The notes beneath the pieces were generated by a model. The model was not told the origin of the DNA, searched no databases, and saw only the letters and a list, made by a program, of their open reading frames with translations. 63,678 nucleotides of DNA from NCBI GenBank assembly GCA_044892505.1, contig CM097883.1:189348323-189412000 (forward strand), written 5' to 3'. Origin of the DNA: Schmidtea nova (taxonomy: Eukaryota). The first letter of the stretch is position 1; each line of letters starts with the position of its first letter. Made by a program: the position numbers and the translations under genes. Below are positions 26,686-51,720 of the stretch, in pieces.

Positions 26686-26730
26686 GATTGGTCGGTCTAG
26701 ACACGACTGATCAGTATAAATACTGATCAG
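26686..26730 (+). promoter_or_regulatory. Candidate LTR promoter: inverted CCAAT box plus TATAAA inside a palindrome (copy at 52117-52161)
   Basis: GATTGG at 26686, TATAAA at 26715-26720, and AATAAA with a T/G-rich tract about 150 nt downstream. Confidence 0.6.
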
Positions 26731-28097: not shown

Positions 28098-28415
28098 TTG
28101 AATAAATGGCCACCTATTTTTGAATTTAATAAATGTTTTAAAGAAGTCTGAAGTGTCTCATTTTGTTAATAGTGTTGTCATGTAGATTTAGTATTGTAGT
28201 TGTTATAGTCATTAGGAAATTCATTTATTAATACAAAATTAGTTCAATAAACCTTTTGAGTCTTCAATGGTTAGATAGTTAAATACTTTTGTAAAGAACT
28301 CGATAATTAAAAACATTAGTATACATCTCGTTTAATAATAATAAAGAGTAGACTAAATAAAATAACATTGTTGATAGGTCCTCCAGCGAATTTATCGTTA
28401 TAATATTCAGACAAC

Positions 28416-29000
28416 ATGCCGACTACCGAAAATTCCAAGAAAATCATGGGACAAATCCAAGAAAGGAAGTTGAGGGACCAGCAGCGACAGATCAAGCGAC
28501 TCACGGTCGCCAATGATGAATTAAGGGCGAAGTGGTTCTCGCCCGGACAAATGAAGGACCAGTCGAAAAAACTTGAGCGGATGCAGGAAGCACTGGCCGC
28601 AACCAAATTGGAACTAGATGCCGTCCAGCGGGAACTCCGAAATTGCCTGAACGCAGTAACAAGAAGTTACCTCGACTCCGAATTGCGAGCGCTAATCCGG
28701 CCGATCACGGCTCAGCGCTGGATACAATGCACTCACCAAGATGTCGCTTGCGGGACAGAAGATGATATCATCATGGCACCCACTCTTACAACGGAAGATT
28801 TGCCTATTTTTCTCAGTGATCCCCCGAGAATAATAGCGTCAGCACCGGTCATAAACCAACAGCTTCGAAAACATCGAATGGGATCGCGACAGCGCCGTCG
28901 TCGCCGAGAATTTGCAAAGCGCCTGGACGAACAAATCCACCACCTGAACTCCTTAACCGAAGCAGAGTTAATCCAGGAGATTAGCCTGGAGCTTGAATAG
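28416..29000 (+). CDS. LTR-encoded ORF B, 194 aa, coiled coil plus Arg-rich motif
   Basis: ATG-initiated, heptad-like N-terminal half, RQRRRRR motif, AATAAA about 40 nt after the stop. The single LTR difference inside it is synonymous (CTG/CTT). Confidence 0.7.
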   Translation: MPTTENSKKIMGQIQERKLRDQQRQIKRLTVANDELRAKWFSPGQMKDQSKKLERMQEALAATKLELDAVQRELRNCLNAVTRSYLDSELRALIRPITAQRWIQCTHQDVACGTEDDIIMAPTLTTEDLPIFLSDPPRIIASAPVINQQLRKHRMGSRQRRRRREFAKRLDEQIHHLNSLTEAELIQEISLELE

Positions 29001-29564
29001 GAAAACCTCAATGTAAAATAACAACCTGTCTTTATTATTTTAATAAAAGTATTACTGTGTAAAATTTTTCTCTCATCGTGTGAATTCACTAAATAAAATA
29101 AAATAACAATAGCTAAATCCTAGAAGTAAAAAATCGCAGCCGCATTTTCTCAAACCGACCGTTTCTACGCAGGGACTGATTAATTACATTGTAGATCAAT
29201 TAAGGAAAGTCGTTGGGAAAAGCGTATGATAGATCATAAGGATATGTAATACAAAATGCAGTAAGAAACGAACATCCATAGAATGTAAATGCGTAAGACC
29301 TTCTATCGGCAGCAAGGACCCGAGGGAAGATAAATGGGGAGTAGTTTTGGCAACAAAGCTCACCTGCCCATCATTTTTCCACCACCGTATGCAGTACCAA
29401 CTTGGCTAGTAGGGAATAGTCAAGGGCATACGCGTGTAGTAGTCATGTTATGTATGGTTATGGGCGTGGAATCCCTAGTATACGTACTCATCAACAGTCG
29501 TTCAATTAATGATTAACTATTTATTTGAATTACTTAAAACCCACCCATAATCCCAGCATAAATT

Positions 29565-29582
29565 TGGGGGCTCAGCCGGGAT
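29565..29582 (+). promoter_or_regulatory. Primer-binding site, tRNA-Pro
   Basis: TGGGGGCTCAGCCGGGAT lies 6 nt after the LTR end and is complementary to a tRNA-Pro-type 3' end (ATCCCGGCTGAGCCC-CCA). Confidence 0.85.
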
Positions 29583-29887
29583 CAACTTTGATTTTATGCG
29601 GAAAATGTGAACCCAATGACAACAGAGAAATTTAAAATCAGAATTTTGTGAGTAGAAATAGTAACCGAAAGAGTAATCGAGATAAAAGTGAGTTGCGTGT
29701 AAATAGATAATTACAAACAGAGAATTAAAACAAATTAGTAGATAAATTGAACAAATGCATTCATAAATAACAGGTCGGGACGACAATTTACTGAAACACG
29801 GGGGGAGGCTATAAAACTGTCAGAAACGAAACACAGTACTACTTTTCGAATAATATTAACACAGTAATTAAATAAATTATCTAGGAA

Positions 29888-30349: not shown

Positions 30350-30821
30350 TAAATATTTAGAGTGTTAATATATTGTATCGAATGACAAAGTCAGGGGAGC
30401 AATCAACAATGTTAATTAATTTTTGAGCTACTATCAAGTAGTCCGTTAAGCACCCATTGGGAGGTACCAGTTGATCAACCCACTCGGGGTATATAGAAAG
30501 GGGCCAATCGCAAATGTTGGAAAGCTTTTGTGATGTGATTGATCACCACATCCCGCATTAGTAGACCAACGCGATCTTTTTGTATATTTTGGTTGGGGAG
30601 AGAAATAGGGAAAACCCTGATGAGGTAAGATGCGCGCAGAGAAAATAATAAAAATTGAATTATGACTGATCAGCGAAAGAATTAGTAGTAAAACAAAGAA
30701 TCGAGGAATTATAGAGGAAAATAAGAGGTGCATAATCAGCTCGCATGAAATTGAGAGAACTCAGCTGAGAAATTGTAGTCGCTAGCGAAGTTAAGAATTA
30801 CGATTAACCGGTTAAGGAAAA

Positions 30822-31190
30822 GTTATCAGCGGTTTGTCCCTTGAAACAAAGGGTTATTAGAATTTGTCCCTTGAAACAAAGGGTTATCAGCGGTTTGTCC
30901 CTTGAAACAAAGGGTTATTAGAATTTGTCCCTTGAAACAAAGGGTTATCAGCGGTTTGTCCCTTGAAACAAAGGGCTATTAGAATTTGTCCCTTGAAACA
31001 AAGGGTTATTAGAATTTGTCCCTTGAAACAAAGGGTTATCAGCGGTTTGTCCCTTGAAACAAAGGGCTATTAGAATTTGTCCCTTGAAACAAAGGGTTAT
31101 CAGCGGTTTGTCCCTTGAAACAAAGGGTTATTAGAATTTGTCCCTTGAAACAAAGGGTTATCAGCGGTTTGTCCCTTGAAACAAAGGGTT
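30822..31190 (+). repeat. Tandem array of 12 units of 30/31 bp
   Basis: Invariant core TTTGTCCCTTGAAACAAAGGG with two alternating linkers (ttatcagcgg and (t/c)tattagaa). Confidence 0.95.
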
Positions 31191-31617
31191 GAGGCCAAAG
31201 AGCCATATTGAATGACCTAGCTAGGCGTTATTGAGATATGATTTAAGGCCAATAGAGCCATTTGAGATAATTGAGATATGAATTTAAGGCCAATAGAGCC
31301 ATTTGAGATAGTTGAGATATGAATTTGAGGCCATAAGAGCCATTTGAGATAATTGATATTAATTAGAGGCCAAAGGAGCCAATAGGGATATCCGGATATA
31401 TAGTAACGGAGGGAATATAGGCCCAGGGTTACAATTGTTGAGTAACAACGGAGGGAATATAGGCCCAGGGTTGCAATTATTTAAAATTAAAGGAAGATAG
31501 TAACGGAGGGAATATAAGCCCAGGGTTACAATCGTTTGAGTAGCAACGGAGGGAATATAGGCCCAGGGTTGCAAGTGATAAGAAATAACAACAGAGGGAA
31601 TATAGGCCCAGAGTTGT
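31191..31617 (+). repeat. Two further degenerate repeat blocks in the leader
   Basis: About 5 copies of (A/G)GGCCAA..GAGCCA(TTTGAGATA) at 31191-31385 and 5 copies of ACGGAGGGAATATAGGCCCAGGGTT at 31403-31617. Confidence 0.9.
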
Positions 31618-32164
31618 GATCGTCGACGATAATGAGAATAGTGCGCACCAGGAATTGAGAAATGCGAGTAAAGCTGATTATGCGACCTAAAATAATGCAT
31701 GCAAGTAGAATCGAGAAATAGGAGCTGACCGGAAAGACCGGCAGAATTAATAATTAGAGGCTAGCAGAGAGAAAGATAAAGAGATGATAAAATAATAATC
31801 GAGCCAAATGACTCAGGGAATTAGAGCGTTCGAACGACAAATAGATTGGGAGACCGCGGGAAAAATAATTGATGTATTTTAATAACCGATAGATAATTGT
31901 TATGACTAAATAGATAATTGTGACTAGTATATAGATAATTTAAATAGACTTAAATAAAGGGGAATCTGGGAATGGGGAAAATAATAGAAACCCAGTAATG
32001 AGAAGTCCCGTAAAAAGGGAATAAAAGCGCAACGATAACAATAGAGTATCGTTGAAGTGACATTTGTATTTTAGATAAATCAATCAAACCAAACCAAGCA
32101 ACCAAGGAAGAAAAGAATCGGAACACGATAAGACAGGAAAATTGAGTATACAAAAGTAATCCCG

Positions 32165-35100
32165 TTGAGAAAAGGAGAAAAGAGTGTCATAATAAAACCA
32201 GCAGAAAAGAATAAAGCTACCAAGAATAATAATCAGAAAGGCCTAAAAGGAAGTAAAGCAAGGCAGATAATAATACAAAAGTCGATTATCGAAAACGATA
32301 AATTATCAGTAACAAGCAACAGTTCAAGCAACAAAGAAAATCAAGCAGAACCCGAGAGAAACCCAATAAGTGAAATAGAAGTCGACAAAACCAACAACGA
32401 TTATATAGAAGAAATAGAAGACGAAGTAGAACAAGAAACAGAAAGTGACGATACCGATAACGATAGTAAAGCATCAGATAACGAATCAGCAAAAGAAACT
32501 GAGATCGACCGAAATTCGAGTGACGAACCTAACAGTGAACTAGAAACAAGAGGAAACGAAAGTAAAATAACTACAGACAGCGGAATTGAAATGAGCGAAC
32601 CCAGAGAAGAGATAAAAGACAAATTTTCCGGAGAACCGTTTAATGGAGATGCGAGTAAACTGGAAACTTTCTTAAAGGAATTTGGCATATTCGTGGAAGT
32701 ATGCAAGTGGAAACCAGAAACAACTGTAAGCAGAATTCAGCTATATTTGAAAGATAGCGCATTAGATCTATATTTGGAAGCAAAAAATGGAACTAATCCA
32801 CCTACAAGTTGGTCAGCGATAAAGGACTTTTTCCAACAAACCTTTGGAATAAACAAAGTATTGAATGAGGCATTCACGGAATTCTCAATGAGGAAACAAA
32901 AGATAAATGAATCGAATGCGGTATATGCAAGCGAATTGAAAAAGTTAGCAAAGTTGATCTTTAATCAAGACAGCCCAATAAATGAGGAGTTAATGGCAGC
33001 TATCTTTGTGGGAGGATTACGAAGACCCGACATAAGAGCGCAAGTTGGATGTCAAGGTTGTAAAACCATCGACCAAGCACTAGAAACAGCTAATAGATTT
33101 GAACTACACATGATAGGAAATGATGGTAGAATCTATTTAGCTATGGATACAGCACAAAACGAACAAGAAGTGAACCTGAATAACCACATTCCAAATTCAC
33201 AACAATTAAACCGACCACCACCGCAACGAAGGAATGAAGGGAATAAAGTATCAAATTACGGAAATCAAAACAATTACAACCCCCAAGGACCAACGAAACA
33301 ATGCAAAACATGTGGGAAATTGGGACATTGGCAACAAGAATGTTATCAGAACTTGAATTGTGGAAAATGTGGAGTAAAAGGGCATTCAGAGAGCAGATGT
33401 TACACAATAACCTGTTTTAATTGTGGACGACCTGGACACCTATCAAGAAATTGCGGACAAAGAAGCAATCAACGAGGAAACTGGCAGAATACCGGAAACC
33501 GACAAAACTATGGAAACCAACCAACTGTTGGAAACCGACAGAATTATGGAAATCAGCCAAATAATGGAAACCAACTGGAATACGGAAACCAACCAAATAG
33601 TAATAATAATAACCAAAATAAAAATACCACTAAAGAGATACATTTAATGCAAGAGGTTCAAAGATTGACGGAGCTGATAAACAATACAACCAGAGGAAAT
33701 CCGCAAACAGGTCAACAACAAATCAATATGATGAGAAAAATAGAAAGCGAAAACGAACGATTGAATCGGGAAAGTCAAGCACGACATGCTCAGGAATGGG
33801 CAAGAGTACAAAGAGAAGAGGAACAAAAACAGCAAGAAAGAGAACGACAACCTCTGAGAATCAATATGATGAGAGCAACCAATCAAACAAATTCCCACGA
33901 GAAAGAGACTACGCCGGAAATAAATTCAATGAAACCGAATCCAACTAACAATGAAGGACGAAAAGAAATAGTAAAAGAAGATGAAGAAGTAGAAAAAGAA
34001 ATAGAGAAGGAAGTGGAAACAGAGGCAAACCAGGAAGAGAAAAGAATGATTTGGAAAAAGGGAATGATGGTAATCCTGCCAAACGGTCATATGTTTCGAT
34101 TCCAATATAACATAAAGGAAGAAGTAGGAACATTGTTCAACAAAGTGAATGAAATGGCTCCAGGAGTAACGAAACTGCCCAGAGAAGCATTCCTAAAAAT
34201 AGAAGGTGCACCAGAAGTAAAATTGAAACTAACGGATACATGGGAAAACATGGGAGTAGTAGAGACAAAAAGAAATGTGATGGTAATCAAGGAAATAGAA
34301 CCAGAAGGAATTCCATCGCCAGTGCGTCACGAAACACGAATCAGTCGAATATTTAAAGGGAAAATGATACGAAGACGGTTGGGAGAAATAGACGAGTTAG
34401 AACGAAAATTGAGAAAGGTCGGAGTAGTAGACGACAAGAGTGAATCAACACAAAAAGCTATTAAAAGTGAAACAAGACCAACGGAAAATACACCAAGTGA
34501 AATCAACCAAATAAAACACATTAACATGTTGAGAGGCCAGGCAAAGAATTTTTCCGACGACGAAGAGGATAGTGACGTCAGTAGTCTAGCAGGGGACATG
34601 CTAGACGAACCGGAAATTGAAGACAAAAAGATAGAAGTAGTAAAGACACCAGAAACTATTCAAGTAAAAGAGGATGAGATCCAGAAATTATTAGATAACG
34701 CACTAGAAGTAATATATAATGAGGAATTCATCGACAAGAAACACTATCGGAAATTCATGAGAGCGATATTACAAATGAACTATAAAGAGTGGTTGCCAGG
34801 CCGGGAAGTAGAAACACTAAGCCAATACGTAGGAAAATTATTAAAAGAACCACTCCATGAATATATAATCCTAATAGAGATAAAAACATGTTTGCCAAGG
34901 ATTTGGATCAAAACTCCACTCACGGAAGATATTTATCAATGGGTAGAAGATAGATTAGGGAGTTCATATAAAAACAAATTCCTCTATTCACAGAATGGAC
35001 TAGTGAAGAAAAGGACGCATTTGATAGAAACAGGCATATGGCCAGGAGAGGTGACAACATTATCGATATGCGATGATAAGAGAGAAGAGAACCTACAAGA

Positions 35101-35170
35101 AGTAGCAAAGGAAGCAAATATGTGTTTCGAGAAGAAGATAAAACCACGGTTAGAATATGAGAAAGGATAA
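32165..35170 (+). CDS. gag: Gag (Ty3/gypsy capsid, 3 CCHC knuckles, Q/N-rich region) with a long C-terminal extension
   Basis: Capsid-like FNGDASKLETFLKEF...KQKINESNAVYASELKKLA; knuckles CKTCGKLGHWQQEC, CGKCGVKGHSESRC and CFNCGRPGHLSRNC. First in-frame ATG is at 32591. Confidence 0.93.
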   Translation: MRKGEKSVIIKPAEKNKATKNNNQKGLKGSKARQIIIQKSIIENDKLSVTSNSSSNKENQAEPERNPISEIEVDKTNNDYIEEIEDEVEQETESDDTDNDSKASDNESAKETEIDRNSSDEPNSELETRGNESKITTDSGIEMSEPREEIKDKFSGEPFNGDASKLETFLKEFGIFVEVCKWKPETTVSRIQLYLKDSALDLYLEAKNGTNPPTSWSAIKDFFQQTFGINKVLNEAFTEFSMRKQKINESNAVYASELKKLAKLIFNQDSPINEELMAAIFVGGLRRPDIRAQVGCQGCKTIDQALETANRFELHMIGNDGRIYLAMDTAQNEQEVNLNNHIPNSQQLNRPPPQRRNEGNKVSNYGNQNNYNPQGPTKQCKTCGKLGHWQQECYQNLNCGKCGVKGHSESRCYTITCFNCGRPGHLSRNCGQRSNQRGNWQNTGNRQNYGNQPTVGNRQNYGNQPNNGNQLEYGNQPNSNNNNQNKNTTKEIHLMQEVQRLTELINNTTRGNPQTGQQQINMMRKIESENERLNRESQARHAQEWARVQREEEQKQQERERQPLRINMMRATNQTNSHEKETTPEINSMKPNPTNNEGRKEIVKEDEEVEKEIEKEVETEANQEEKRMIWKKGMMVILPNGHMFRFQYNIKEEVGTLFNKVNEMAPGVTKLPREAFLKIEGAPEVKLKLTDTWENMGVVETKRNVMVIKEIEPEGIPSPVRHETRISRIFKGKMIRRRLGEIDELERKLRKVGVVDDKSESTQKAIKSETRPTENTPSEINQIKHINMLRGQAKNFSDDEEDSDVSSLAGDMLDEPEIEDKKIEVVKTPETIQVKEDEIQKLLDNALEVIYNEEFIDKKHYRKFMRAILQMNYKEWLPGREVETLSQYVGKLLKEPLHEYIILIEIKTCLPRIWIKTPLTEDIYQWVEDRLGSSYKNKFLYSQNGLVKKRTHLIETGIWPGEVTTLSICDDKREENLQEVAKEANMCFEKKIKPRLEYEKG

Positions 35171-35377
35171 AGTTCATATAAAAACAAATTCCTCTATTCA
35201 CAGAATGGACTAGTGAAGAAAAGGACGCATTTGATAGAAACAGGCATATGGCCAGGAGAGGTGACAACATTATCGATATGCGATGATAAGAGAGAAGAGA
35301 ACCTACAAGAAGTAGCAAAGGAAGCAAATATGTGTTTCGAGAAGAAGATAAAACCACGGTTAGAATATGAGAAAGGA
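34961..35377 (+). repeat. Exact 207-bp direct duplication (34961-35167 and 35171-35377) separated by an in-frame TAA
   Basis: Direct comparison; period 210 nt. Confidence 0.95.
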
Positions 35378-35911
35378 CGAATCCTACTAGGACATCTAAA
35401 TTCCATGATAGAACAAATCATCCCACAAATCAAAAAACATAGAAAGGAGTTAATGAGAAGCGAATACGAAAAGTTGAAACGATGTATCGAGTGCATACGT
35501 GACACAAGTCACACGAGATGGTCACAGATCTCATACGGAAAAGTAATTGCCAAAATGGGAAAAGCAATGTTTAGACAAGGAAAAATAACAGATCTAAAAA
35601 TTTCAGTGGAACTGCCTAATGAGGATACCAAGGAAATTGAAGTGGTAGCAGATTGTACCATAAAAGAATTAGTAAATGTCATCAACGAGACACTATTACA
35701 AAGAGAACCAGAAGAAGAATGGGAAGATGACATAATCATGAAATACAACGAACATGTATTATGGGATCACGATGAAAGACGGCTATATAAAATTGGTATA
35801 TGGGATAATCATCAAACCATCCACGTTATCAGAATGGACGATACACCAAGAGAAACTGCTAAGGATGAGAAAAGAGAACGGGAACGACAAAAAGAAGTTG
35901 TGCATAAATAA
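35171..35911 (+). CDS. In-frame continuation of the Gag extension, with a ubiquitin-like fold
   Basis: Same frame as gag; LKISVELPNEDTKEIEVVADCTIKELVNVINE...YKIGIWDNHQTIHVI has a beta-grasp pattern. Confidence 0.7.
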   Translation, partial: SSYKNKFLYSQNGLVKKRTHLIETGIWPGEVTTLSICDDKREENLQEVAKEANMCFEKKIKPRLEYEKGRILLGHLNSMIEQIIPQIKKHRKELMRSEYEKLKRCIECIRDTSHTRWSQISYGKVIAKMGKAMFRQGKITDLKISVELPNEDTKEIEVVADCTIKELVNVINETLLQREPEEEWEDDIIMKYNEHVLWDHDERRLYKIGIWDNHQTIHVIRMDDTPRETAKDEKRERERQKEVVHK

Positions 35912-38611
35912 CAACAAATAGTAGACATTTATCGAAATTGGCGGATTTGGCCAGAATGGGAAGATGTATTAGAAGAACTCAATCTCAACAGACGATTACT
36001 AACACCCGTAGAAAAGAAATGGAACGAACGAGGAAAATGTTGGGAACCAAAAGCAGGCGAATACGAAGAAGAATATGAAATGGGCATAGAAGACGATCAC
36101 AAACCGGAAACCGGAAGAGTCTGTATGGTAACAAGAAAAGCCATGCCAGCGGATTTAGACGGACCAGAAACGGCAACCATGTGGTTGGAAAGAGAGAAAC
36201 AAAAAACGGAAGAATTTGTCGAAATATTAAAAACCAATGCGCACGGCAAGAGAAAAGTAGTAAAAGGTCTCGCAGATTTTTTCGTAGTTAATGGAGAAGA
36301 CATAACATGCTTGCGTAAAGTAGCAAAAGCAATCGCCGAATACAAAAGAGTTAACGAGTGGTGTCCAGAACAATTGGATCACGTAATTAAAAAATGGAGA
36401 AACCAAGAATTCTCGCAGGAATCACCACAGAAAGTACACCTAAGAATAGTATATCCGAACCAAGAAAAGGAAGAATTTTGGGTAGGAATAGCGGAGAAAG
36501 TCCGAGACATTAAAAAGAAATTGAGATACGAACCACCATTCCATTTACAACACCAAGGACGATCATTAGATAACAGCTTGGAAATTGGAATAACGCCAGC
36601 GCAATTAGATATCGCAAATACATTGACAGTGGCAGCAATAGCAGGCCAACCATTGAAATTGAAAGAGGAAAAGAAACCAAAAGGAAGTATGAGTACGCCG
36701 AGCCCAATGAAATCTGTAATGACTCCAGGAACAAGCTCAGAACAAGCTAGAACAACACCAAGAGAGACAAGAGAAAGAACACCACCAGAACCATACGATG
36801 TAGACGAAAATTTTACAGATAGCGATGATATGTTAGAGGAGTTAATAGAGCTAACAAAAGAGAAAGATGATAATATTTTCGAAAGAATTCAAGAATTACC
36901 AACAGCAATACCGGTAACCAACACCGAAGATGAAGTTGAACAAGAAATAATCATCGAAGAAGTAAATGAAATAGCAGAAGAGGAAGCAAGGAGGGCAAAT
37001 GTAGAAAATGTACAATTCACACAAGAAATGGAAAGATGGTTAGAAGAAAGAGCCAATGAACCAAGAGACGTCACAGAAGAAACGGGACGAGAAACAAGAT
37101 TAGTAGAAACGGGCACGACAATGGACAAACGACCTAGAGGTAGACCCAAGATGGATCCAGCAAATGTAGTTATAAAATCAAGAGAGGAAAAAAGACGGGA
37201 TCAATGGGATTTGTGTCTAAAGAAACTAAATAAAATAGCCGAAACGAAAGAAAAAGAAACAACACAAACATACCAAGGCGAGGAATGGATATCAAAGATG
37301 TTAATGGAAATACTGGCAATAATCGATCCGGAATTAAAGAAATGGTGGAGAATAAACGAAATAAGCGAAAGGGCGAAATCACTGCATAGCGCCATCGCAC
37401 CAATCCTACCAGAACTAATAAAAGAGAAGACAATGTCAAACCACCTAGATTGGCAAGGAACCACGATGTTGATAAAGAAGTTAACGGAAGGAGCAGAGAC
37501 GGATAACAAATATTTAATAGCTATGGCATACACCATTTACAATCTGTTGACACTGAGTAGAGGTCGACTGAAACCCACAGCACTCGAAAGACATATAAAG
37601 AATACAGCCAAAATTATAGAGAAGGAAATAGAACCGTACATCATCAGTAAAGGAGGATGGGAAACATTCACAAAAACGAACCAAAAGAAAAACCAAGCCA
37701 AAAATATGAAAAGGAAATTCGAAGAGATATTGGGAGAATTGGAAAAGGAAAAGTCGGGAACAGGAAACGGGAAATCATCACTAAACTTGAGTTCTATCAT
37801 TATGATGATGTTAATATGGATGATTAGTACTGACGGAGCAACAGCATTTGAAGTATTCGATTGTGATCAAATGGCATTAGGTGAGAAATATTCACTACGA
37901 GGGACAGAACAATGTAAGGACGCAACCCCAACGGAGCTAAAAACATTAAAAAAGAGACAATTATACCACGTATATCAGGAAGCTGAACTGATAAGAACAA
38001 TGGTCAGAGAATGCAAAGTTTATAAAACCAGATTTGCTTTTTATTGTGGGCACCGCCATTATTCAGCAATCGTGATGCCAGGAACGGAAAGAGAATCGGT
38101 AATGCTGCAAGGAGAAGACTGTGAAAAATTATTCAAACATGGAGAAGTAGAGACTAGAGATAGAGTAAAGATAAGAGGAAAAACGGGAGTAATATTACAA
38201 CAAACATATTATGTAGCAGGAGCTATTACGGGAGGAGAAGGGTACTGCCAAGGAGCAACATATCCAATATTCGGAGTAGCAGCAACAAACCTAGTGGTAA
38301 TAGATACGTATACAGTGGAACTAAAAACGTACGAGGCATTCTTCGATCCAACGACGGGAGAAATGAAAACTCTACCTATGTGCAAAATCGAGTCAAACAC
38401 TTGTCAGACTGGTATGTCAACCCTAACCTACCAGATACGAGGAAAGGAATGTCAACTACAATTGCTAAAAGAAGCAGAATTCGACGAGATACAAGGGAAA
38501 ACCTTCCAAGAGGAAGAAGAAGACGAGGCAGCAAGAGGAAAAATACTTCAAGACACCGTACGAGGAGAGAAAAAGATCGAAATACGAACACAAGAAAACA
38601 AATTAAAATGA
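35912..38611 (+). CDS. Polyprotein segment: Ubl-like domain, AT-hook, Bcl-2-like domain, signal peptide, N-half of chuvirus-like glycoprotein
   Basis: The frame is open directly after TAA 35909-35911 (ORF-track start 36080). Motifs: KRPRGRPK; EIEPYIISKGGWETF; IIMMMLIWMISTDG followed by FDC...ECKVYKTRFAFYCGHRHYS. Confidence 0.8.
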   Translation, partial: QQIVDIYRNWRIWPEWEDVLEELNLNRRLLTPVEKKWNERGKCWEPKAGEYEEEYEMGIEDDHKPETGRVCMVTRKAMPADLDGPETATMWLEREKQKTEEFVEILKTNAHGKRKVVKGLADFFVVNGEDITCLRKVAKAIAEYKRVNEWCPEQLDHVIKKWRNQEFSQESPQKVHLRIVYPNQEKEEFWVGIAEKVRDIKKKLRYEPPFHLQHQGRSLDNSLEIGITPAQLDIANTLTVAAIAGQPLKLKEEKKPKGSMSTPSPMKSVMTPGTSSEQARTTPRETRERTPPEPYDVDENFTDSDDMLEELIELTKEKDDNIFERIQELPTAIPVTNTEDEVEQEIIIEEVNEIAEEEARRANVENVQFTQEMERWLEERANEPRDVTEETGRETRLVETGTTMDKRPRGRPKMDPANVVIKSREEKRRDQWDLCLKKLNKIAETKEKETTQTYQGEEWISKMLMEILAIIDPELKKWWRINEISERAKSLHSAIAPILPELIKEKTMSNHLDWQGTTMLIKKLTEGAETDNKYLIAMAYTIYNLLTLSRGRLKPTALERHIKNTAKIIEKEIEPYIISKGGWETFTKTNQKKNQAKNMKRKFEEILGELEKEKSGTGNGKSSLNLSSIIMMMLIWMISTDGATAFEVFDCDQMALGEKYSLRGTEQCKDATPTELKTLKKRQLYHVYQEAELIRTMVRECKVYKTRFAFYCGHRHYSAIVMPGTERESVMLQGEDCEKLFKHGEVETRDRVKIRGKTGVILQQTYYVAGAITGGEGYCQGATYPIFGVAATNLVVIDTYTVELKTYEAFFDPTTGEMKTLPMCKIESNTCQTGMSTLTYQIRGKECQLQLLKEAEFDEIQGKTFQEEEEDEAARGKILQDTVRGEKKIEIRTQENKLK

Positions 38612-41600: not shown

Positions 41601-42843
41601 AGGAAAGGAACCAGATCCCAGAAACATTGATAAAGTAAAAGAATGTCCAGTACCAAAGACGATAACGCAGATCCAAGAATTTCTCGGATTATGCGGTTAC
41701 TATAGAAAATTCATAAAGGATTACGCAGGAATTGCAAAACCAATCCAGGAGCTAGTAAAGAAAGACGTATCGTTCATATGGGGAAGCGAACAACAAACAG
41801 CCTTCGAAACATTACGAGATAAGTTAATAACTGTACCAATATTGGTTCACCCGGATTTCAAGAAGCCATTTTTACTCGCAACCGACGCAAGTGGATATGC
41901 AGCAGGAGCAGTGTTAGGACAATATGATGACGAGGGAAAAGAGCGGGTAAACGGATATTATAGCAGAACATTCAAGAAACACGAGAAGAATTATTCAGTA
42001 ACGGAAAGAGAAGCATTGGCAATAATATTAGCAATAAAACACTTTAAATATCTATTATGGGGACACGTTATATGCATAACCACGGATCATCAACCACTTG
42101 TATGGCTAGGACAACATAAGGAAACATCCAGCAGATTAATGAGATGGGCGATGCAATTACAAGAATATTCACCAGATATAAAATTCAAATCAGGGAAAGC
42201 GAATGCCAACGCAGATTGCATGTCAAGATTAACGTTTCCAGAACTAACAGACCCAGAAGTGCAAAGAATATGCATAGTGATAGCAGAGGATTTGGATTTC
42301 AGCGAGTTAAAGAAAGATCAGCAAGAGGATAAAGAACTAAGACCCATCATAGAATTCCTAAGCTCACGGAATATGGATGTATTCAAAGACAATACGGAGT
42401 TAAAAGAACACATGAGGAAATACCAACATCGATACACAATAGAAAAAGGATGGTTGTTAATACAAGATGGAGAAAAACGATTAATGTGTCTGCCAGGTAA
42501 TAGACGAAAAGAGATAATAACTCAATACCATGACGGAAAGTTGGGAGGACACATGTCCGATAAGAAAACATTAGATCGCATGAGACAAAAATATTATTGG
42601 CCAACAATGGACGAAGACGTAAAGGAATGGATAAAGAACTGTTTAACTTGTGCCACAAGAAAGGATAGTGGGAAGAAATGGAAAAATCCCTTAAAACCCA
42701 AGCCGATACCAGCAGAACCAATGACTACCATTGCAATGGATGTAATAGGACCATTGCCAGAAAGTTTAAACGGGAATCAATATATATTGGTAATAACGGA
42801 TTATTTGACTAAATTCCCTGAAGCATTTGCGATGCCGGATTAA
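38380..42843 (+). CDS. pol: C-half of the glycoprotein (with TM) fused in frame to Pol: protease, RT, RNase H, integrase zinc finger
   Basis: PR MIDTGANIS (40222); RT FCIDYRRLN, PFGLTNAPASFQR and YIDD (41437); RH LATDASGYAAGAVL; IN HDGKLGGH...CLTC and MDVIGPL. Ends at a TAA where the consensus has Gln (MPD*KAKTVA). Confidence 0.96.
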   Translation: MQNRVKHLSDWYVNPNLPDTRKGMSTTIAKRSRIRRDTRENLPRGRRRRGSKRKNTSRHRTRREKDRNTNTRKQIKMRNTPTVLITSDADIGMRFVKGKTALKCGVAMLETNYPGIFVSKQEVPRAKRKVHTNDVKLHLYMNNKMDFLFHRGQASLQKVYYDLINNDCILNREILKTKLAVAITNPDSAMPLLPLREGHFGRVVGEVMYVYICKKTNAKVATMTKLQPGQCTNELEIEYKGKVRYVQPVTRIINPVSFEPNPFNCSNAYGPLYQKPDGNWVMFPSRTEVPAPREFELMQLSKGRKFKDVDVSNMGFYSAKDLEAARQNILFPARREAVLSSIVTITGGTNYQGGPNYELLLSPAHFKKATENMMKAMWGRFLIFGQMMAGILGVILIIQIIRVIITQMLACFDIYKREKKVNWKLVVGFLPFLAKTMVLHGHSKDIHRIKRLLKILAKMKGTDEEVGRKFKKIMNNEQARQRLKKERKGLWERMKGYRTQDDSSDDDDDDNEGGQVFKNQVPKYVEKNPAEMWKCYAPPPTMYQEPTPGMRQNTMQMMPMTNIYPMIPEDYRTRRCRSVDPQGDSHTIAVMSSNTGPVLTTTIEINGREIEAMIDTGANISAIDIKWIPQEQRRDIERTNVHVIACSKEVVEVAGRWWVKIKHQNTEIETYVAVIPALSVPCIIGTDLMPALFKEIVIDLGTMRLKDRTGQICAIEAKVTSSKQIIVPARREKICFVKIDPTIEGDMIFEPSKRFEKRKSLPMARGLVSANDNGEIPINVVNFDEEDKIIYENERLGKLTPMMDIEIPIKEGVKEEEPTWNIDSQLLNEDQKKQLERLLMEYKDIFAASDLDLGTCDVTLHTIPLTDETPIALRPYKLAEAQKSVAEAEVQKMLDAEVIEPSCSPWQFPVVMVKKKDGTQRFCIDYRRLNAVTKRDTYPLPDINEMLLTLQGAAYFTSLDLKSGYWQIKMKEEDKEKTAFTIGRDLYQFRKMPFGLTNAPASFQRCMNFVTHGIKQCMVYIDDLLIYSSTFEQHIQDIRDVFVRLRQWKLKLKPSKCDWAKEKVTFLGHIVSAKGKEPDPRNIDKVKECPVPKTITQIQEFLGLCGYYRKFIKDYAGIAKPIQELVKKDVSFIWGSEQQTAFETLRDKLITVPILVHPDFKKPFLLATDASGYAAGAVLGQYDDEGKERVNGYYSRTFKKHEKNYSVTEREALAIILAIKHFKYLLWGHVICITTDHQPLVWLGQHKETSSRLMRWAMQLQEYSPDIKFKSGKANANADCMSRLTFPELTDPEVQRICIVIAEDLDFSELKKDQQEDKELRPIIEFLSSRNMDVFKDNTELKEHMRKYQHRYTIEKGWLLIQDGEKRLMCLPGNRRKEIITQYHDGKLGGHMSDKKTLDRMRQKYYWPTMDEDVKEWIKNCLTCATRKDSGKKWKNPLKPKPIPAEPMTTIAMDVIGPLPESLNGNQYILVITDYLTKFPEAFAMPD

Positions 42844-44793
42844 AAAGCAAAGACCGTAGCAAGAATTTTAGTAGAGGAAATATGTTGTCGATACGGAACC
42901 CCGAAACAAATACTAACAGATCAAGGAACAAATTTTATGAGCGAAATACTAGATGAAGTAACAAATTACTTCAGAATAGCCAAATTACGAACGTCACCAT
43001 ATCATCCGCAAACCAACGGACAAACGGAAAGATTTAACGGCACATTGATTCGAATGTTATCCAATTATGTAAGCAAACACCAAACAGATTGGGATGAATA
43101 CGTAAAGCTATGTCTAATGGCATACCGAATGTCGATACACGCAGCAACAAAATTGAGTCCATTTCAATTAATGTATGGAAGGGAATGCAATATGCCAATA
43201 GATCTTGAATATCAACCACCTTTGTCTCAATATATGGAGGAAGATGATTACGTCACCAAATTCAAAGAACGAATGCAAGAGATATGGAAGACAGCAGAAC
43301 TAAACATAAAGTTTTATCAAGAAAGTTACAAGGACCTACACGATCAAAAGAAAAATGTTAAAACAAATGATCTTAAACCCGGAGATTGGGTAATGATAGA
43401 AACCCCAGAAATAATACCAGGAACCGTTAAAAAACTACAAAGACCAGGAAAAGGCCCTTACGAAGTTATATACAAAAAGGAAAACAATGTGAAGGTAAAA
43501 CTTGTTAATCGACCATTGATACGACCAATATACGTTAATACATGCAGATGTAAGAAAGTACCAAAAACAATAACCACAGCGCCAGAAGAACGAATAATAA
43601 CCAGATCCCAGACAGCCAGAATGAATATGCTCAGAGCAACCAATGAAAGTACCGAAGCAGAAAACAATCAACAAGAAAAAAGAAACAAGGAAATGGTACT
43701 AAAAGCCAGAGAAATAATGGGAAAATGGCATGTCAGAGACGATATATTAAGAGATATTCAGTCGATAATTAGTGATTACGCAAGGGGACTACCAACAAAA
43801 CCAGTCATTTCAGAACTACTGGAAAAAATTCCAGAAATACTTTCACTAGAAGACATAGGAGGACAACCAGCATTACATAACGCCATAAAATGGGGAGAAG
43901 TAGAGAGAGTAAAAGAATTTCTAAAAATCGCTAAGGAAACAAACCAACACCTTGGTTTTGGGAATAGCGAACAAGAAACACCATTAATGGTAGCAGCCAT
44001 CTACAAATCGGATAAAGCAATAATAGACGTTTTGATAAATGCCGATTTCAACTGGACGGAACGCGATAGAGAAAACAAAACAGTCTTGAATCACGCAATA
44101 TGGAGCTCAAATCAGATAATGCTCAAACAAATAATCGAGAAGGCCACTTGGGAAATAGACGAACTGATCAAAGGTGATATAATCAAGGAGGCAATAAAAA
44201 TCGGTAACTGCAAAACAATACGCAAGCTAATAAAATGGAAAAGATCCGAAAATGATACATGGGTGTTAAATATAAACGAGGTATACAGTGAAGGGCAAAA
44301 CACGTTATTACAATTCCTATTAAAATTAGTTTGTGATCAGAAAACACTGTTAATATTATTGGACAGAAGAAATATTACAATTTCCAAAAACAAAGAGGAG
44401 TGTAAATTCGAAAGTGAAAAAGAAGCATTATTCAGGAAAATTAGGGAATGGTGTGCAAAATCGCTAACCAAGACGATGACTTACAAAGATATATCCAATT
44501 TTCAAGATAAATACAAAACGGTGGAGGAAGAGTATGACAAACTAATAGACATATTAAACCACCCCGAAAAATGCAAACAATTCCTATGTCAAAAGGAAAG
44601 AGAAAGCAAAAGGAAATTTACACCACTTTTCAGCGCAGAGGTACCCTATCAAGAAAGGTTAGATGCGATACAGGACAAAGCAAAAGAACTATTACCAGAA
44701 TTCGAAAATTCTAAACATACACTGGAGATACTCGGATCAATTGTGGAAAGGTACACGCATATGCGGAAGGGACTTACAATGAAAACGATATGA
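42844..44793 (+). CDS. Integrase core and GPY-like C-terminus followed by ankyrin repeats
   Basis: Same frame as pol. ILTDQGTNF, TSPYHPQTNGQTERFN and KGPYEV, then GGQPALHNAIKWG, ETPLMVAAIY and KTVLNHAIW. Confidence 0.9.
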   Translation, partial: KAKTVARILVEEICCRYGTPKQILTDQGTNFMSEILDEVTNYFRIAKLRTSPYHPQTNGQTERFNGTLIRMLSNYVSKHQTDWDEYVKLCLMAYRMSIHAATKLSPFQLMYGRECNMPIDLEYQPPLSQYMEEDDYVTKFKERMQEIWKTAELNIKFYQESYKDLHDQKKNVKTNDLKPGDWVMIETPEIIPGTVKKLQRPGKGPYEVIYKKENNVKVKLVNRPLIRPIYVNTCRCKKVPKTITTAPEERIITRSQTARMNMLRATNESTEAENNQQEKRNKEMVLKAREIMGKWHVRDDILRDIQSIISDYARGLPTKPVISELLEKIPEILSLEDIGGQPALHNAIKWGEVERVKEFLKIAKETNQHLGFGNSEQETPLMVAAIYKSDKAIIDVLINADFNWTERDRENKTVLNHAIWSSNQIMLKQIIEKATWEIDELIKGDIIKEAIKIGNCKTIRKLIKWKRSENDTWVLNINEVYSEGQNTLLQFLLKLVCDQKTLLILLDRRNITISKNKEECKFESEKEALFRKIREWCAKSLTKTMTYKDISNFQDKYKTVEEEYDKLIDILNHPEKCKQFLCQKERESKRKFTPLFSAEVPYQERLDAIQDKAKELLPEFENSKHTLEILGSIVERYTHMRKGLTMKTI

Positions 44794-47762
44794 TGATCAT
44801 AAAAAGAGAAATGCCAGTGACTTTCTTATTAACAAAGAATGGAGTATTGCCAATACATAGAGCCTTACGAGCAGGAAAAGATAGGAGGGTAGTCGAAATT
44901 GCACGGTTGATGCAAGATTGCGGAAGTGACATGAACATGAAAGATAAAAAGGGAGATACCCTCATGATATTCGCAGCAAGAGCGAACACAAAAACCCGAG
45001 TGTTACAGGAACTGTACGAAGCAGGTGCAGGACTCATGGGAAGAACTAACAAAGACAGCTCAATACTAGACGTAGCGTTGTTAGCGCACAATTGGGAGGT
45101 GATAAATTTCATAAAAACAATCACAAATCAGGAGGAAATAGAATACCTTACAAGGACAGTTAAAAAAGCTAGCGTACATTCCATGATGCATAACGCTGAA
45201 CTAACTGAAGCAATACTCAATTGGATGAACCCAAACACCAATGAACCAGCATTCAGGATCAACGAGTGCATGGAACAAGGCCAAAATTTGTATATAAAGT
45301 GTGCATTAATAATAAACAAATGGCCAAAGATAATAGATATCTTCATGAGAAGAAAAGATTTACGATTCACAAACCACCCAAAGGAAACAGAACGTACGGA
45401 CAAATGGAAAGAACTAATGAAAACGTACCTCAATAATTGGATAAAAGCCAAGAAAGAGATTCTAGATTGTAAATTAACCGATAAGGAAATACCTAAGCAG
45501 GCAGAAACACAAGAATATGAAGCAAGTATACTCACAACCATAACGTATGAAAAAATGATAGAAGCAATTAATGTCGAGGACGACATTTTCAACGACCAAA
45601 GGGAAGGCGACAATACAGGAAACGACGACGATAGTACTCGAGAAAATCCAGAGGATCATGAGTTATCAGATAAAGAGGACAGTGAAGAGAAAGGAAGGGA
45701 CACAGAGAAAAATGATAAGAACAATGAATTTGGGAAACAAAGAAACAACAACTATAAAAATAAAAACGAAATAAAAAGAACAGGCTACAAACAAACAATA
45801 AACCCATTCTTTAAACCAGAACTATTATTACTAACGGTAATCATGACCTTAATTAGTCCAACTCAAGGAATGATATGTGAAGAAAGAGCGACAATACAAA
45901 TTGGAAACGCAAAAGGAATCGAACGAGTATGTTGGTCAAAAAAGGACAAAATATCGGGACAAAATAGTCCAATGGATTGCAAGATCTCAGAATACGAACA
46001 AGAAATCATAGAGATCGATGACCTAGAGCTAGATACTTGGTACAGAATGTGCACCGTTCGGAAACCAAAGGATCCGAGATCACATAAGACAATTGCATGT
46101 GCAAACTACCTAACGCCCAAAGTAACCATAACAATACAGCAGTCATCCAAAGGAGACTATGTTGTAGGAAAGTGTGGAAGAACAGAGACACAAGGAACAA
46201 AAAACAAGAAACCCCAGACAATAGACAGACGAACAACGCCAACTATACGAATTACCATAGACAAGCCCGAAGCAAGAGTAACCACAAACGAGACCGAAAG
46301 AGTGACTTACCAAACAGAATTACTATGTTTAGCACTCATATTAACAATGTTAAAACGGTTAGAAGAAGGGATAGACATTGACACAATGGCAGTAACAGAG
46401 ATGAACGACACCCAAAACACCAACCCAAAGTGTTATGCCAGAAGCAACGAAGAAATTGGCGTAAGCGAAATAAAGACGAGTCGGAAAAGGGAAACAAATA
46501 AAGTAACCAAGATATCAGAAGTAAAAGCAGACAGGACGTATGAACTATGTTTACTAGAAAAAGAAAGACACAAGAAAGGAACGACAATTTGTAAAACATT
46601 TCAACCTGGGGAAACAATAAAGTTCATAAGAAGAAGAAGAAGAAATATACGCACCAAACGGAGGACAACTACAATGTTAGAGTTAACCGGAATAGAACCG
46701 GACGTCAAAGGCGTATGCTGGAAGAAGCAGGAAAAGAAAACAAACCAGAATACACCGCCGCAATGTCGAACAAACAGAGGAACAACCACAATACAGATAG
46801 AAGGGTTAGAAAGTAATCAAACGTACGAAATATGCCTGATCAGGAAGAGCGACAAAATAACAGTAAATGAACTGGAATGCAAAATATATAAAACACCCAC
46901 CAGAACAAAAATTGGAAAGACATCGCGAAAAAGCAGAAGACAACGGAACAAAGGAAAAGCGAGGTATACCACTACTTTTAAACCTAATGGACAACAGAAA
47001 AACCAAGAAATACAAATAAAAACCGAAAAGAATACTACAGCAACTCTTATACTATGGAGAATAGACAATAAAACGTTAGAAATATGTTGGGTAATAGTTC
47101 AGAAACAAAGGGAAAGACAGCCACGAGACTGTGGAAACGTGAAAGGAAAAGAGGAAATAAGTATCAGGAACCTGAAATTCAATAGCGAATACGAGATATG
47201 TGCGATAGAAAAGACGGACATATTGGGAAATCAGCAGGAAAGATGCGAAACGTACTACACACCGGTAAACTCAACGTCCAAAGGGAAAGTGAGAAAACTC
47301 GAATTTAAAGAATTAAGTCAGACAACGAAACAAATGGACGCGGAACAAGTAGTAATAGACCCTTACGCAAGATGGACGCCGGAAGAAGTAATTAAAGAAG
47401 TTAAAAGAAAACAACAAGAACGAGAACAACTACTAAATAAACTAAAGGGACAATACGGACCAATGATTAACCAGAGTGAAATTACGAAGATGGACGTAAA
47501 CAAACAAGTTAGAGAACTAATTGGTCTAGGAATACTAGCAGCAACTATTCCAGTAATAACAGTATTATTAATAATATGGATATATGATGTATTCAACAAG
47601 AAACCAATAACACATTGGCCAGATATAAAGATTATGAACTACAGTATAGAATTACCGGAAGAAGTACATAAAGAATTCCAAAGGAGGACGAAAGGTAAAG
47701 AATTTTGGAGACAAATAGAAGATGAAGAGCGATACGAAGGAAAGACAGTGATGGTGATATAG
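44790..47762 (+). CDS. Ankyrin repeats plus internal signal peptides, FN3-like repeats and a C-terminal TM helix, 990 aa
   Basis: ANK: VLPIHRALRAG, GDTLMIFAARAN, SSILDVALLAH. Repeated ..CW.....C....I.I.GL....YEIC units. TM LIGLGILAATIPVITVLLIIWIY. Confidence 0.75.
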   Translation: MMIIKREMPVTFLLTKNGVLPIHRALRAGKDRRVVEIARLMQDCGSDMNMKDKKGDTLMIFAARANTKTRVLQELYEAGAGLMGRTNKDSSILDVALLAHNWEVINFIKTITNQEEIEYLTRTVKKASVHSMMHNAELTEAILNWMNPNTNEPAFRINECMEQGQNLYIKCALIINKWPKIIDIFMRRKDLRFTNHPKETERTDKWKELMKTYLNNWIKAKKEILDCKLTDKEIPKQAETQEYEASILTTITYEKMIEAINVEDDIFNDQREGDNTGNDDDSTRENPEDHELSDKEDSEEKGRDTEKNDKNNEFGKQRNNNYKNKNEIKRTGYKQTINPFFKPELLLLTVIMTLISPTQGMICEERATIQIGNAKGIERVCWSKKDKISGQNSPMDCKISEYEQEIIEIDDLELDTWYRMCTVRKPKDPRSHKTIACANYLTPKVTITIQQSSKGDYVVGKCGRTETQGTKNKKPQTIDRRTTPTIRITIDKPEARVTTNETERVTYQTELLCLALILTMLKRLEEGIDIDTMAVTEMNDTQNTNPKCYARSNEEIGVSEIKTSRKRETNKVTKISEVKADRTYELCLLEKERHKKGTTICKTFQPGETIKFIRRRRRNIRTKRRTTTMLELTGIEPDVKGVCWKKQEKKTNQNTPPQCRTNRGTTTIQIEGLESNQTYEICLIRKSDKITVNELECKIYKTPTRTKIGKTSRKSRRQRNKGKARYTTTFKPNGQQKNQEIQIKTEKNTTATLILWRIDNKTLEICWVIVQKQRERQPRDCGNVKGKEEISIRNLKFNSEYEICAIEKTDILGNQQERCETYYTPVNSTSKGKVRKLEFKELSQTTKQMDAEQVVIDPYARWTPEEVIKEVKRKQQEREQLLNKLKGQYGPMINQSEITKMDVNKQVRELIGLGILAATIPVITVLLIIWIYDVFNKKPITHWPDIKIMNYSIELPEEVHKEFQRRTKGKEFWRQIEDEERYEGKTVMVI

Positions 47763-47887
47763 GAGGCGGGATATGACTGTAAATAATAGTGTAAATAACA
47801 ATGCATTACCGTAATAGTATGGGTATCGATATTATAAAAATATAAAAAGAGAAATCGAGAAAACGATTAATGTATATAATTTAGAAA

Positions 47888-48244: not shown

Positions 48245-48335
48245 ATAAATAAAGCGAAAAATTGTAAATATGTAAAAACAAAAACAAGAAAAATCAAAAA
48301 ATAGATAACAAATCAAGTGTATATATCATTGTAGA

Positions 48336-49718: not shown

Positions 49719-49831
49719 CCAGAAAAGTGATCATGTAAATAATATGTACAGTTAAATACCCAAAAATTATTATATAAACAAAAATAACTGATATATAAAC
49801 CGATTAAAATTTTCATTCTGTAATTATAGCA

Positions 49832-50892
49832 ATGGGAAATATCGAGGTATGCTTACAGGAAATTACGATGCATCAAGCAGAAGCGATTAGCGATCATCTA
49901 GAACAGATTGAAATATGGGTCAATGCATATTATGGAAAGCAAGAGGAGATAGAGAGACAAGCCGAATTATTAAAAGAAGCGGAAAGATCAAGTCAAAGAA
50001 GTCGAGAAAAAATAGAAGAAGTATACAAAATGCTACAACAACAAAAGGAATATTACCAGAGAATGATGAAAGAGCGACGAGAGGAAAGAGACAGACAGCA
50101 GATGGAAGCTGAACACAAGATGTATTCGATTACAGAACAAGCAAGATACTGGAAGAAAGAAGCGAAAGAATCTTACGAAAAAGCTAGAGAAATAATAGAA
50201 AGGACAGCTTATAGTGATGACTGGAAGTTATATAAAGAGATCGATGAACTAAAAGACGAGTTAGAACAAAAAATCAACCAGGAAGTGTTAAATAAAAGAT
50301 GGAATACAAAAAGACAGCAATTTATCCGCGAACAAGCAAAGAAAATTAAAGGACTAACCTATCAAGTTCAAAGAATGGGAGAAGAACTAGCTAATCAAGA
50401 ACAACTGAAAACTATGCTCACCGGAATATGGAATCAGAAAGAAGAAGAGATGAAGAGAGATATAAATGGTTATCAAGGGGTGATTACTCAAAAGAAAATA
50501 GAGCTAAAAAGAACCAGGGAAAGGTTAAAGGAAGAGAAACAAAGTTACGAGGAAAATTAACGAATTTGATGAAAGAAAACGAAGAATTGAAACAGAAACG
50601 AGTAACAGTATCAGTAATACCCAAAGAAGCAAGTATAACGGCAGCCGTAACAAAAATGATAAAAGAAGACGAACAAAAGACAAAAGTAATCGAATTAGAG
50701 AAACAAATAGAAACATTAACAGAACAAGCAAATTACCTAGAATATTTGCTAGACGAGGAGATCCAGATATCTCACATGTATCGAGATGAAGTCGAAATGT
50801 GGAGGAGCAGGGTTGTTTGGATACCACTCCCCACGAACCAAGTAGAGCCTCAGGACGAAGGTTTCTATGAACCAAATGAGACGATTGTGTAA
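49832..50892 (+). CDS. Long coiled-coil accessory protein, probably one gene split by a -1 frameshift near 50553
   Basis: ORFs 49832-50560 and 50428-50892 join (YEEK|LTNLMKENEELK) if one A is added to the run gaggaaaattaa. Confidence 0.65.
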
Positions 50893-50973
50893 ATAAAGCG
50901 GAAAATATATTTTTGTAAATAATTGTATGAAATGTAGTGTCAAATTGTATTGACCTATCTGTAAAGAAACAGT

Positions 50974-51546
50974 ATGAAAAAGCTCAGAATACCGATATTC
51001 CTATACCTAATAACAATCACCCTACAAAGAGAAGATCTTCAACTCACAGAGAAGGAGCTACGAGCCCTACCCGAGAAAACCTATCAAGAGCTAGATAAAC
51101 TAATCGGCGAAGCAACACAAGAAATCACCCAACTTCAACAGATAACATTAGACAACCCAAACGACGAAAAATTTCAACAGGTCCTAGATGAACATCAAAT
51201 CAAATTGAAAGCAATCAGAAAAACCCTAAAAGAAGGTCGAGAACCCATAAAAAGCTTAGCCCAAGCAGAGATAGAATATCAAGAAAAATGGATCATCGCA
51301 ATTATAATAATCCTTGCACTCAGCGTGACCATTATCGCGATCACAATCCTCATAACATCATACCGAGTGAAGATCTTAAAACAAAAACATGTCATCCTGA
51401 ATCGAACAACAATACAAGACATCAGAACCCAAAAGCGAATGAGAAAACACCTAAACCGAATCCAAAGCCACTACGAACTACGAACAATCAGCGAAAGAAC
51501 CCCAATCCAATCCAATACCAATCATGAAATCAAAGAGCTTGTGTAA
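50974..51546 (+). CDS. Small type-I-like membrane protein (hydrophobic N-terminus, coiled coil, TM, basic tail), 190 aa
   Basis: MKKLRIPIFLYLITITL...; TM WIIAIIIILALSVTIIAITILIT; basic cytoplasmic tail. Confidence 0.7.
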   Translation: MKKLRIPIFLYLITITLQREDLQLTEKELRALPEKTYQELDKLIGEATQEITQLQQITLDNPNDEKFQQVLDEHQIKLKAIRKTLKEGREPIKSLAQAEIEYQEKWIIAIIIILALSVTIIAITILITSYRVKILKQKHVILNRTTIQDIRTQKRMRKHLNRIQSHYELRTISERTPIQSNTNHEIKELV

Positions 51547-51720
51547 AACTGATATATTACATTCACTTTATGTATGATCCACTTACATTTAACAATAATA
51601 TGACTTTGTGCTTACGTATAAAATCTATCACCTTACGTGATTCTTTGTGTATATGTAAATTGACATTTATCTGCTTAATTTTTATGTATGATGATATAGG
51701 TGTAAATGTATAATTAATTG

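Follow-up and report, generated by a model that had tools for sequence, protein, structure and literature searches.

Burro (GYPSM1) is described in the Burro section of PMC6431247 as a giant Ty3/gypsy element of planarians, in which the internal part reaches up to 25 kb in Schmidtea mediterranea with a total length of >30 kb, and in which a single polyprotein of ~4900-5100 aa has env placed after gag and in frame with the pol that follows. Nothing on the expression of accessory open reading frames (ORFs) was found in that section. A 63,678-nt stretch of Schmidtea nova (contig CM097883.1, hereafter the window) was found to contain, between two long terminal repeats (LTRs), an element of this kind in which a gag-env-pol-ankyrin polyprotein and seven accessory genes form an array, and acceptor-like YAG trinucleotides precede the genes. 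The element resembles Burro in its tandem repeats and Gag CCHC knuckles, in a mononegavirus-type env placed between gag and the protease (PR) and in frame with pol, and in a cargo of ankyrin, MATH/TRAF and RING domains; its giant size, ~5000-aa polyprotein span and weak Bcl-2 and ubiquitin-like signals may be further likenesses. It differs in its length (28.7 kb against >30 kb), in its TRAF domain being a separate downstream ORF, and in having no BIR or dUTPase match, the likeness having been drawn by description (PMC6431247, Burro section).

In Cer1, a gypsy element of C. elegans, the subgenomic mRNA is reported in the part of PMC3315495 covered here to be cis-spliced and to occur with and without the spliced leader SL1, and the long RNA skips those sites; unlike the present element, Cer1 was found to have a single subgenomic product, no multi-gene array and no operon resolution. 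In walleye dermal sarcoma virus, accessory ORFs likewise precede gag and follow env, and the downstream ones are expressed from spliced subgenomic RNAs, whereas this virus is a retrovirus and not a Ty3/gypsy element, has three accessory genes, and its orf c is without a known transcript of its own (PMC3185748, in the part covered). In contrast to that virus, acceptor-like sites were found here even at the LTR-internal ORFs and at the polyprotein. The spliced-leader (SL) operons of flatworms and nematodes share with the present element same-strand genes ~100 nt apart and an UNYAG-type acceptor before each; they hold host genes, whereas here SL use is only predicted and candidate cis donors are present upstream (PMC8629364, PMC12582326, in the parts covered). 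The SLs of flatworms have a terminal AUG and are joined at acceptors of the form UUNYAG; remnants of SLs in LTR and LINE loci of flatworms were likewise read as SL trans-splicing (PMC12582326, same part). In parasitic flatworms, on average 66% of the SL sites share acceptors with the cis route, so the cis and SL routes can share acceptors (PMC12582326).

An earlier note on this DNA had claimed that a YAG stands 1-5 nt before the ATG of nearly every accessory gene, and all seven AG contexts cited in it were found in place. The G of the AG was located at 28410 (gap 5), 29884 (gap 3), 47884 (gap 3), 48334 (gap 1), 49829 (gap 2) and 50972 (gap 1), and ORF A was found to be preceded by a YAG with its G at 27614, 15 nt before the ATG. 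The test set contained the + strand ORFs of >=100 aa with non-coding DNA upstream, which are the seven accessory genes and gag; the ORF at 50428 was counted within the 49832 gene, and the 60-aa ORF at 29334, which has no YAG within 5 nt of its ATG, was left out. A YAG 1-5 nt ahead of the ATG was found in 6/8 of these stand-alone ORFs, whereas dinucleotide shuffling of the 60-80 nt ahead of each ORF predicts 0.79-0.81 (P = 1.6-1.8e-5), the distance window having been picked after the data were seen. With a looser window of 0-8 nt, the comparison with shuffled spacers proposed in the earlier note still gave an enrichment (P ~5e-4). The background was 75/551 for the other ATGs of the element, 2/13 for minus-strand shadow ORFs and 0/6 for internal ATGs of the polyprotein pieces.

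The sites were also found to contain acceptor-like features. A T at -5 was present at 6/7 sites against 33/157 other non-coding YAGs (P = 8e-4), and the tract upstream was T-richer than at other non-coding YAGs (P = 1e-3). An acceptor matrix was built on seven host acceptors of the window, recognised through reading-frame continuity, and 6/8 sites were found within its top 17 of 2214 AGs. Of the acceptor-like sites in the element, the one at 28816, inside ORF B, scores highest. It is very improbable that the YAGs arose by chance or as the context of start codons in spacers rich in A and T, with the downstream genes being reached on the genomic RNA by reinitiation, shunting or internal entry. 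Short spacers generally suit reinitiation, the 1-5 nt window is post hoc and site 50972 is poor; such an account is opposed by the enrichment that persists in the wider window with controls at background, by the two independent and significant acceptor features, and by the presence of three ORFs and many ATGs in the 5-kb leader before gag.

Splicing of some kind into single-gene mRNAs is likely on these sequence features. If eight genes share one LTR-driven RNA, each requires a 5′ end of its own, which the acceptors would provide. The earlier proposal that 3′ splice sites resolve a polycistronic retroelement RNA gained support from the T at -5, the T-rich tract and an eighth site upstream of gag, but its choice between cis and trans is not decidable from sequence, cis being slightly favoured.

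The YAGs are tentatively read here as working 3′ splice sites that are joined in cis to the LTR leader. The 5′ LTR would drive one long RNA with eight genes in a row, and a short LTR leader without any ATG, for which 27019-27088 with donor 27089 is the best candidate, would be cis-spliced to a chosen acceptor, with 26895, 29688 and 30625 as alternative donors. After leader splicing, the own ATG of each gene would be the first ATG met; the polyprotein mRNA would likewise be produced via site 32074, and the unspliced RNA would be the genome. Some SL use of the same acceptors is compatible with this model. The candidate leader region (27015-27110) was found to be folded with a z of -3.37, and the alternative leader candidate (26715-26900) was found to be unstructured (z 0.17). 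Cis-splicing is favoured because no special host is needed, candidate donors lie 5′ of every acceptor, a donor in cis is reported to win over the SL in competition for an acceptor further downstream (PMC4558846, in part), and complex retroviruses do likewise, spliced accessory mRNAs being the rule in those such as walleye dermal sarcoma virus (PMC3185748). Also counted for cis-splicing was the size of the host intron around the element, ~38 kb if no exon lies between.

Several observations weigh against cis-splicing from the LTR leader. The donor candidates are all imperfect, neither 26895 nor 27089 being a strong consensus match, and 18 GTs elsewhere score >=6.0 against 5.0 for the LTR candidates on a crude scale. 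The ATG-free state of the leader carries no weight alone, because all shuffles lack an ATG too, and such a leader leaves unexplained a 153-codon open frame in the Gag phase upstream of gag. Cis introns of 21-24 kb would need to traverse several AATAAA-bearing spacers. The acceptor matrix is supportive only, because the TRAF site (48334) ranks 152 and site 50972, a poor acceptor, ranks 1065 of 2214, and because 11 of the top 17 AGs are not pre-ATG; it was built on seven putative host sites and gives high scores to T-rich spacers in general.

Other leader arrangements were rejected. For an element-encoded SL RNA, no Rfam match was found in the window, nor in 26320-32600 at E up to 5. The ATG/GT site at 26543 is 1 of 25 in the element, lies in an unstructured region (z -0.13) and was treated as chance, and the acceptor 27039 of a possible bipartite leader was placed at matrix rank 914.

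The four 3′ spacers were found to contain a common cassette in which the stop codon is followed by a short purine run, TGTAAATA at +16 to +22, an AT-rich tract, YAG and ATG. Six of the seven copies of TGTAAATA in the element lie in or at the 3′ spacers against 0.5 expected from shuffles, and the 15.7-kb polyprotein region has none; the motif was noticed post hoc. We take TGTAAATA to match a Pumilio element, and presumably it also contains the UGUA word of CFIm. Among the same-strand gaps, the four 3′ spacers are all <=300 bp, and the gaps from ORF A to ORF B and from ORF B to the RING ORF are 318 nt and 887 nt, respectively.

It is possible, though less probable than cis-splicing, that every spacer is a site of cleavage and polyadenylation of the long RNA, the downstream piece being re-capped at the YAG by host SL trans-splicing, for at least the four 3′ genes. 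The spacer lengths of 125, 91, 113 and 81 nt would fit the ~100-bp operon peak of Macrostomum and C. elegans (PMC8629364, in part) and stay below the 300-bp limit applied to parasitic flatworms (PMC12582326, in part). The TGTAAATA motif is present 16-22 nt past the stop in 4/4 of these spacers, UNYAG fits 7/8 sites, the full flatworm motif UUNYAG fits 3/8, and Cer1 gives a precedent for a gypsy RNA that can receive an SL. The long acceptor-ATG gaps (15 and 516 nt) are both divisible by three, which would put a junction AUG in frame, and where this AUG is out of frame the true ATG is <=5 nt away. Against an SL operon, the junction AUG is in frame at only 4/8 sites (2.7 expected), candidate cis donors are present upstream, and the element would lose genomic RNA to internal cleavage. 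The T at -5 cannot tell cis from trans, because the host cis acceptors share it. The polyadenylation signal expected in the spacers is also unevenly represented: AATAAA, with which several genes were said in the earlier note to end, was indeed seen after 5/8 genes, but the enrichment was not significant (2.8 expected, P = 0.07), and no AATAAA was found within 72 nt past the stop in 2/4 of the 3′ spacers. The degenerate A[AT]TAAA was found after 5/8 genes against 3.8 expected (P = 0.28).

Separate promoters are improbable. Each small gene would have its own promoter in its spacer, the YAG would be initiator-like or incidental, and TGTAAATA would be what we assume to be a forkhead-type DNA site. 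The RING gene is preceded by a G run, a TATAAAA and a CAGT (Table 1), which makes a promoter plausible for RING at least, and TATA-like words are present in several spacers. Their distances were found to be inconsistent, with none ~30 nt 5′ of the TRAF or 50974 sites; transcripts begun at the YAG would have 5′ untranslated regions of a few nt, and the T-tract and the T at -5 would be unexplained.

At the eighth site (32074), the repeat-rich leader gives way to A-rich coding sequence, and the longest ATG-free gap of the element (31998 to 32591) was found to start just before it. An ATG was absent in 2/2000 shuffles of 32075-32590, and this stretch is open for 153 codons in the Gag phase (0/5000 shuffles) with a coding-like positional bias. 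The stretch behind the site is ATG-free and in the Gag phase, and therefore the polyprotein mRNA probably also receives its 5′ end at 32074. Under SL trans-splicing, the terminal AUG of a flatworm SL would start a Gag extension at 32075; the Gag-phase frame from 32075 stops at codon 19, and a cis route with the ATG at 31998 and a 65-nt intron from 32010 yields the same phase, both of which speak against the SL. That this giant env-bearing retroelement is a true operon, with cleavage in ~100-nt UGUAAAUA-cassette spacers, SL re-capping and the SL AUG starting an extended Gag polyprotein, is an unlikely combination. As a gag acceptor, 32580 was rejected (matrix rank 1035), and so was donor 30625 as the source of a start codon in the Gag phase, being absent from the in-phase donors listed.

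The coordinates of the features are collected in Table 1.

Table 1. Features of the element and of its candidate expression signals (window coordinates).
Feature	Position	Strand	Remarks
5′ LTR	26320..29558	+	3239 bp; holds ORFs A and B
Alternative promoter/leader candidate	26715..26900	+	TATAAATA at 26715, TCAG ~30 nt on, AATAAA at 26870, donor-like GAG/GTATTT at 26895
TATA-like box TATTTAAA	26988..26995	+	~31 nt 5′ of the candidate leader; putative promoter
Candidate common leader exon	27019..27088	+	GC-rich, two hairpins, without ATG; putative start site
Donor-like ACG/GTAAAG, then AATAAA at 27096	27089..27101	+	joint best GT (with 26895) between 26700 and 27614
Acceptor-like CAG, 15 nt 5′ of ORF A	27612..27614	+	matrix rank 13/2214
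ORF A, 155 aa	27630..28097 (copy 53061-53528)	+	no Pfam match
Acceptor-like CAG, 5 nt 5′ of ORF B	28408..28410	+	matrix rank 10
ORF B, 194 aa	28416..29000 (copy 53847-54431)	+	no Pfam match
Primer-binding-site-like 18-mer, 6 nt past the LTR	29565..29582	+	from sequence; presumably tRNA-Pro type
Donor-like AAA/GTGAGT	29688..29693	+	just 3′ of the primer-binding site
G run, TATAAAA at 29810, CAGT ~25 nt on	29800..29840	+	possible own promoter of RING
Acceptor-like TAG, 3 nt 5′ of the RING ORF	29882..29884	+	rank 14; best of the 56 AGs of its spacer
RING-finger ORF, 153 aa	29888..30349	+	zf-C3HC4_3, E 1e-11; no BIR match
Strong donor-like GAG/GTAAGA	30625..30630	+	between RING and gag
Three tandem-repeat arrays, untranslated leader	30822..31633	+	30/61-nt, 41-nt and 43-nt units
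Eighth acceptor-like site, TTTTAG	32072..32074	+	rank 17/2214; 3rd of 168 in its segment
ATG-free coding-like stretch in Gag phase	32075..32590	+	one in-frame stop, 32129-32131
Polyprotein region	32591..47762	+	Gag (3 CCHC), weak ubiquitin-/Bcl-2-like matches, env, PR-RT-RH-IN (protease, reverse transcriptase, RNase H, integrase), ankyrins, C-terminal tail
Spacer 1, 125 nt	47763..47887	+	TGTAAATA at +16 and +28; acceptor-like TAG ends 47884
Accessory ORF, 118 aa	47888..48244	+	no convincing family
Spacer 2, 91 nt	48245..48335	+	AATAAA at +4, TGTAAATA at +19; acceptor-like TAG ends 48334
TRAF-like ORF, 460 aa	48336..49718	+	zf-TRAF, MATH
Spacer 3, 113 nt	49719..49831	+	TGTAAATA at +16; acceptor-like TAG ends 49829, rank 2
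Probably one gene, split in this copy	49832..50892	+	overlapping ORFs 49832-50560 and 50428-50892
Spacer 4, 81 nt	50893..50973	+	AATAAA at the stop, TGTAAATA at +22; weak acceptor-like CAG ends 50972
Accessory ORF, 190 aa, hydrophobic stretch	50974..51546	+	no Pfam match
3′ LTR	51751..54989	+	by self-comparison

The LTRs were recognised by self-comparison as two 3239-bp direct repeats with 2 mismatches between them. Their ends read TG...CA and the ATTT target-site duplication flanks the element on both sides, giving a length of 28,670 bp with an internal part of ~22 kb and a GC content of ~37% against ~25% in the flanks. ORFs A and B, without Pfam match, lie within the LTR (27630-29000 and 53061-54431), downstream of both promoter candidates, so that the U5 or the R would have to be very long and the strong-stop DNA ~2.5 kb in size. 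The 30/61-nt unit of the leader tandem arrays (30822-31633) contains a short inverted repeat whose fold is not significant (z -0.62); a packaging signal is possible there. A clear polypurine tract was not seen before the 3′ LTR (51720-51750), its place being occupied by a GC-rich stretch.

In a Pfam scan of 14 ORFs, the pol order was found to be PR-RT-RH-IN. The polyprotein ORF 38449-42843 contains PF24664 (Monjiviricetes-type fusion glycoprotein), followed by the presence of RVP and RVT_1 in the same frame; RNase H and the integrase zinc domain follow the RT, and ankyrins come next. Sub-region scans gave Retrotrans_gag (E 7e-5) and three zf-CCHC_4 stretches in Gag, and weak signals for Ubiquitin_4 (E 0.028) and Bcl-2 (E 0.11) in the polyprotein; for the Bcl-2-like region, the PDB search returned no match. 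A dUTPase-like domain between PR and RT gave no Pfam match at E 0.01, the method of the Burro paper itself being HHpred. The BIR (IAP) domain was matched in 0/14 ORFs, and because of this the element, which matches the published description of Burro in architecture, was filed as Burro-like Ty3/gypsy rather than as Burro1.

The polyprotein span is 15,688 nt and its reading frame is broken in the present copy. The breaks in 32129-47762 (stops, frame changes and an exact 210-nt duplication at 34961-35377) exceed the expectation from 2 LTR mismatches, for which a defective parent, assembly errors or hypermutation are options. Cys/Trp motifs recur in the post-integrase tail (45870-47600), which also has a hydrophobic stretch; by eye only, it resembles the tails of the relatives P0018-P0022, and it gave no convincing match in Pfam or BLAST.

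In an RT tree of 56 sequences picked from 227 full-length matches, the element was placed inside a 13-member clade (support 0.97) with all six env-before-protease proteins (P0025, P0026, P0134, P0136, P0169 and P0171), which share its env-PR-RT order; the RT-RH identity within the clade is <=59%. A scan of genome contigs gave 78 loci of ordinary gypsy pol, with env or accessory ORFs matched at 0/78. These loci (L001-L078) contain eukaryotic gypsy pol in many bacterial genome bins, probably as host contamination, the closest being L001 with 49% in RT-RH. For the TRAF ORF, 12 homologous matches were found with 23-30% identity across long alignments.

A host gene for a right-handed beta-helix protein (window 820-63140, + strand), with exons placed at 820-969 and from 2497, 24692 and 62824 onward and with short introns of 52-56 nt, holds the element in one intron (~25029-62823) in the sense orientation. 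The acceptors and AATAAA sites of the element could trap transcripts of this gene. Other mobile-element fragments were seen in the host introns at 3680-4600, 9060-10650, 17360-17960, 55600-55980 and 59640-60160; a Tc5/CENP-B (Tigger-like) fragment at 10006-10650 was confirmed by Pfam, and hAT-, mariner- and GIY-YIG-like pieces were recognised by eye.

The element family and its cargo are already known, and SL trans-splicing of a gypsy RNA is already known from Cer1 (PMC3315495). The suggestion in the earlier note of a new expression strategy for a retroelement is therefore to be narrowed, since an SL1 trans-spliced gypsy RNA has been published and novelty would be confined to an operon of several genes that is resolved by the SL. 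The literature scope included terms within parts of PMC8532177, PMC6109357, PMC13238120, PMC11410931, PMC10899757 and PMC13465017. No acceptor-separated gene array or SL-resolved operon was found in it for Burro or any LTR element, the primary Burro papers (the S. mediterranea genome paper of 2018 and the Burro1 study by Lee et al. 2026), which may report transcripts, being outside this coverage.

Regulators of apoptosis and of ubiquitin are part of the cargo of Burro-type elements, and the IAP of Burro1 is reported, second-hand, to protect planarian stem cells (PMC13465017, in part). How many cargo genes are expressed from a 25-kb RNA is not addressed in the parts of the literature covered. 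A repeated cassette of stop, motif, acceptor and ATG would explain cheap gene addition by such elements. If the splicing is in cis, a Ty3/gypsy element would use the splicing style of complex retroviruses with as many as eight acceptors. If it is in trans, a mobile element would be using the operon machinery of its host, and, should the SL-operon account be true, its expression would be dependent on the SL RNA supply of the cell.

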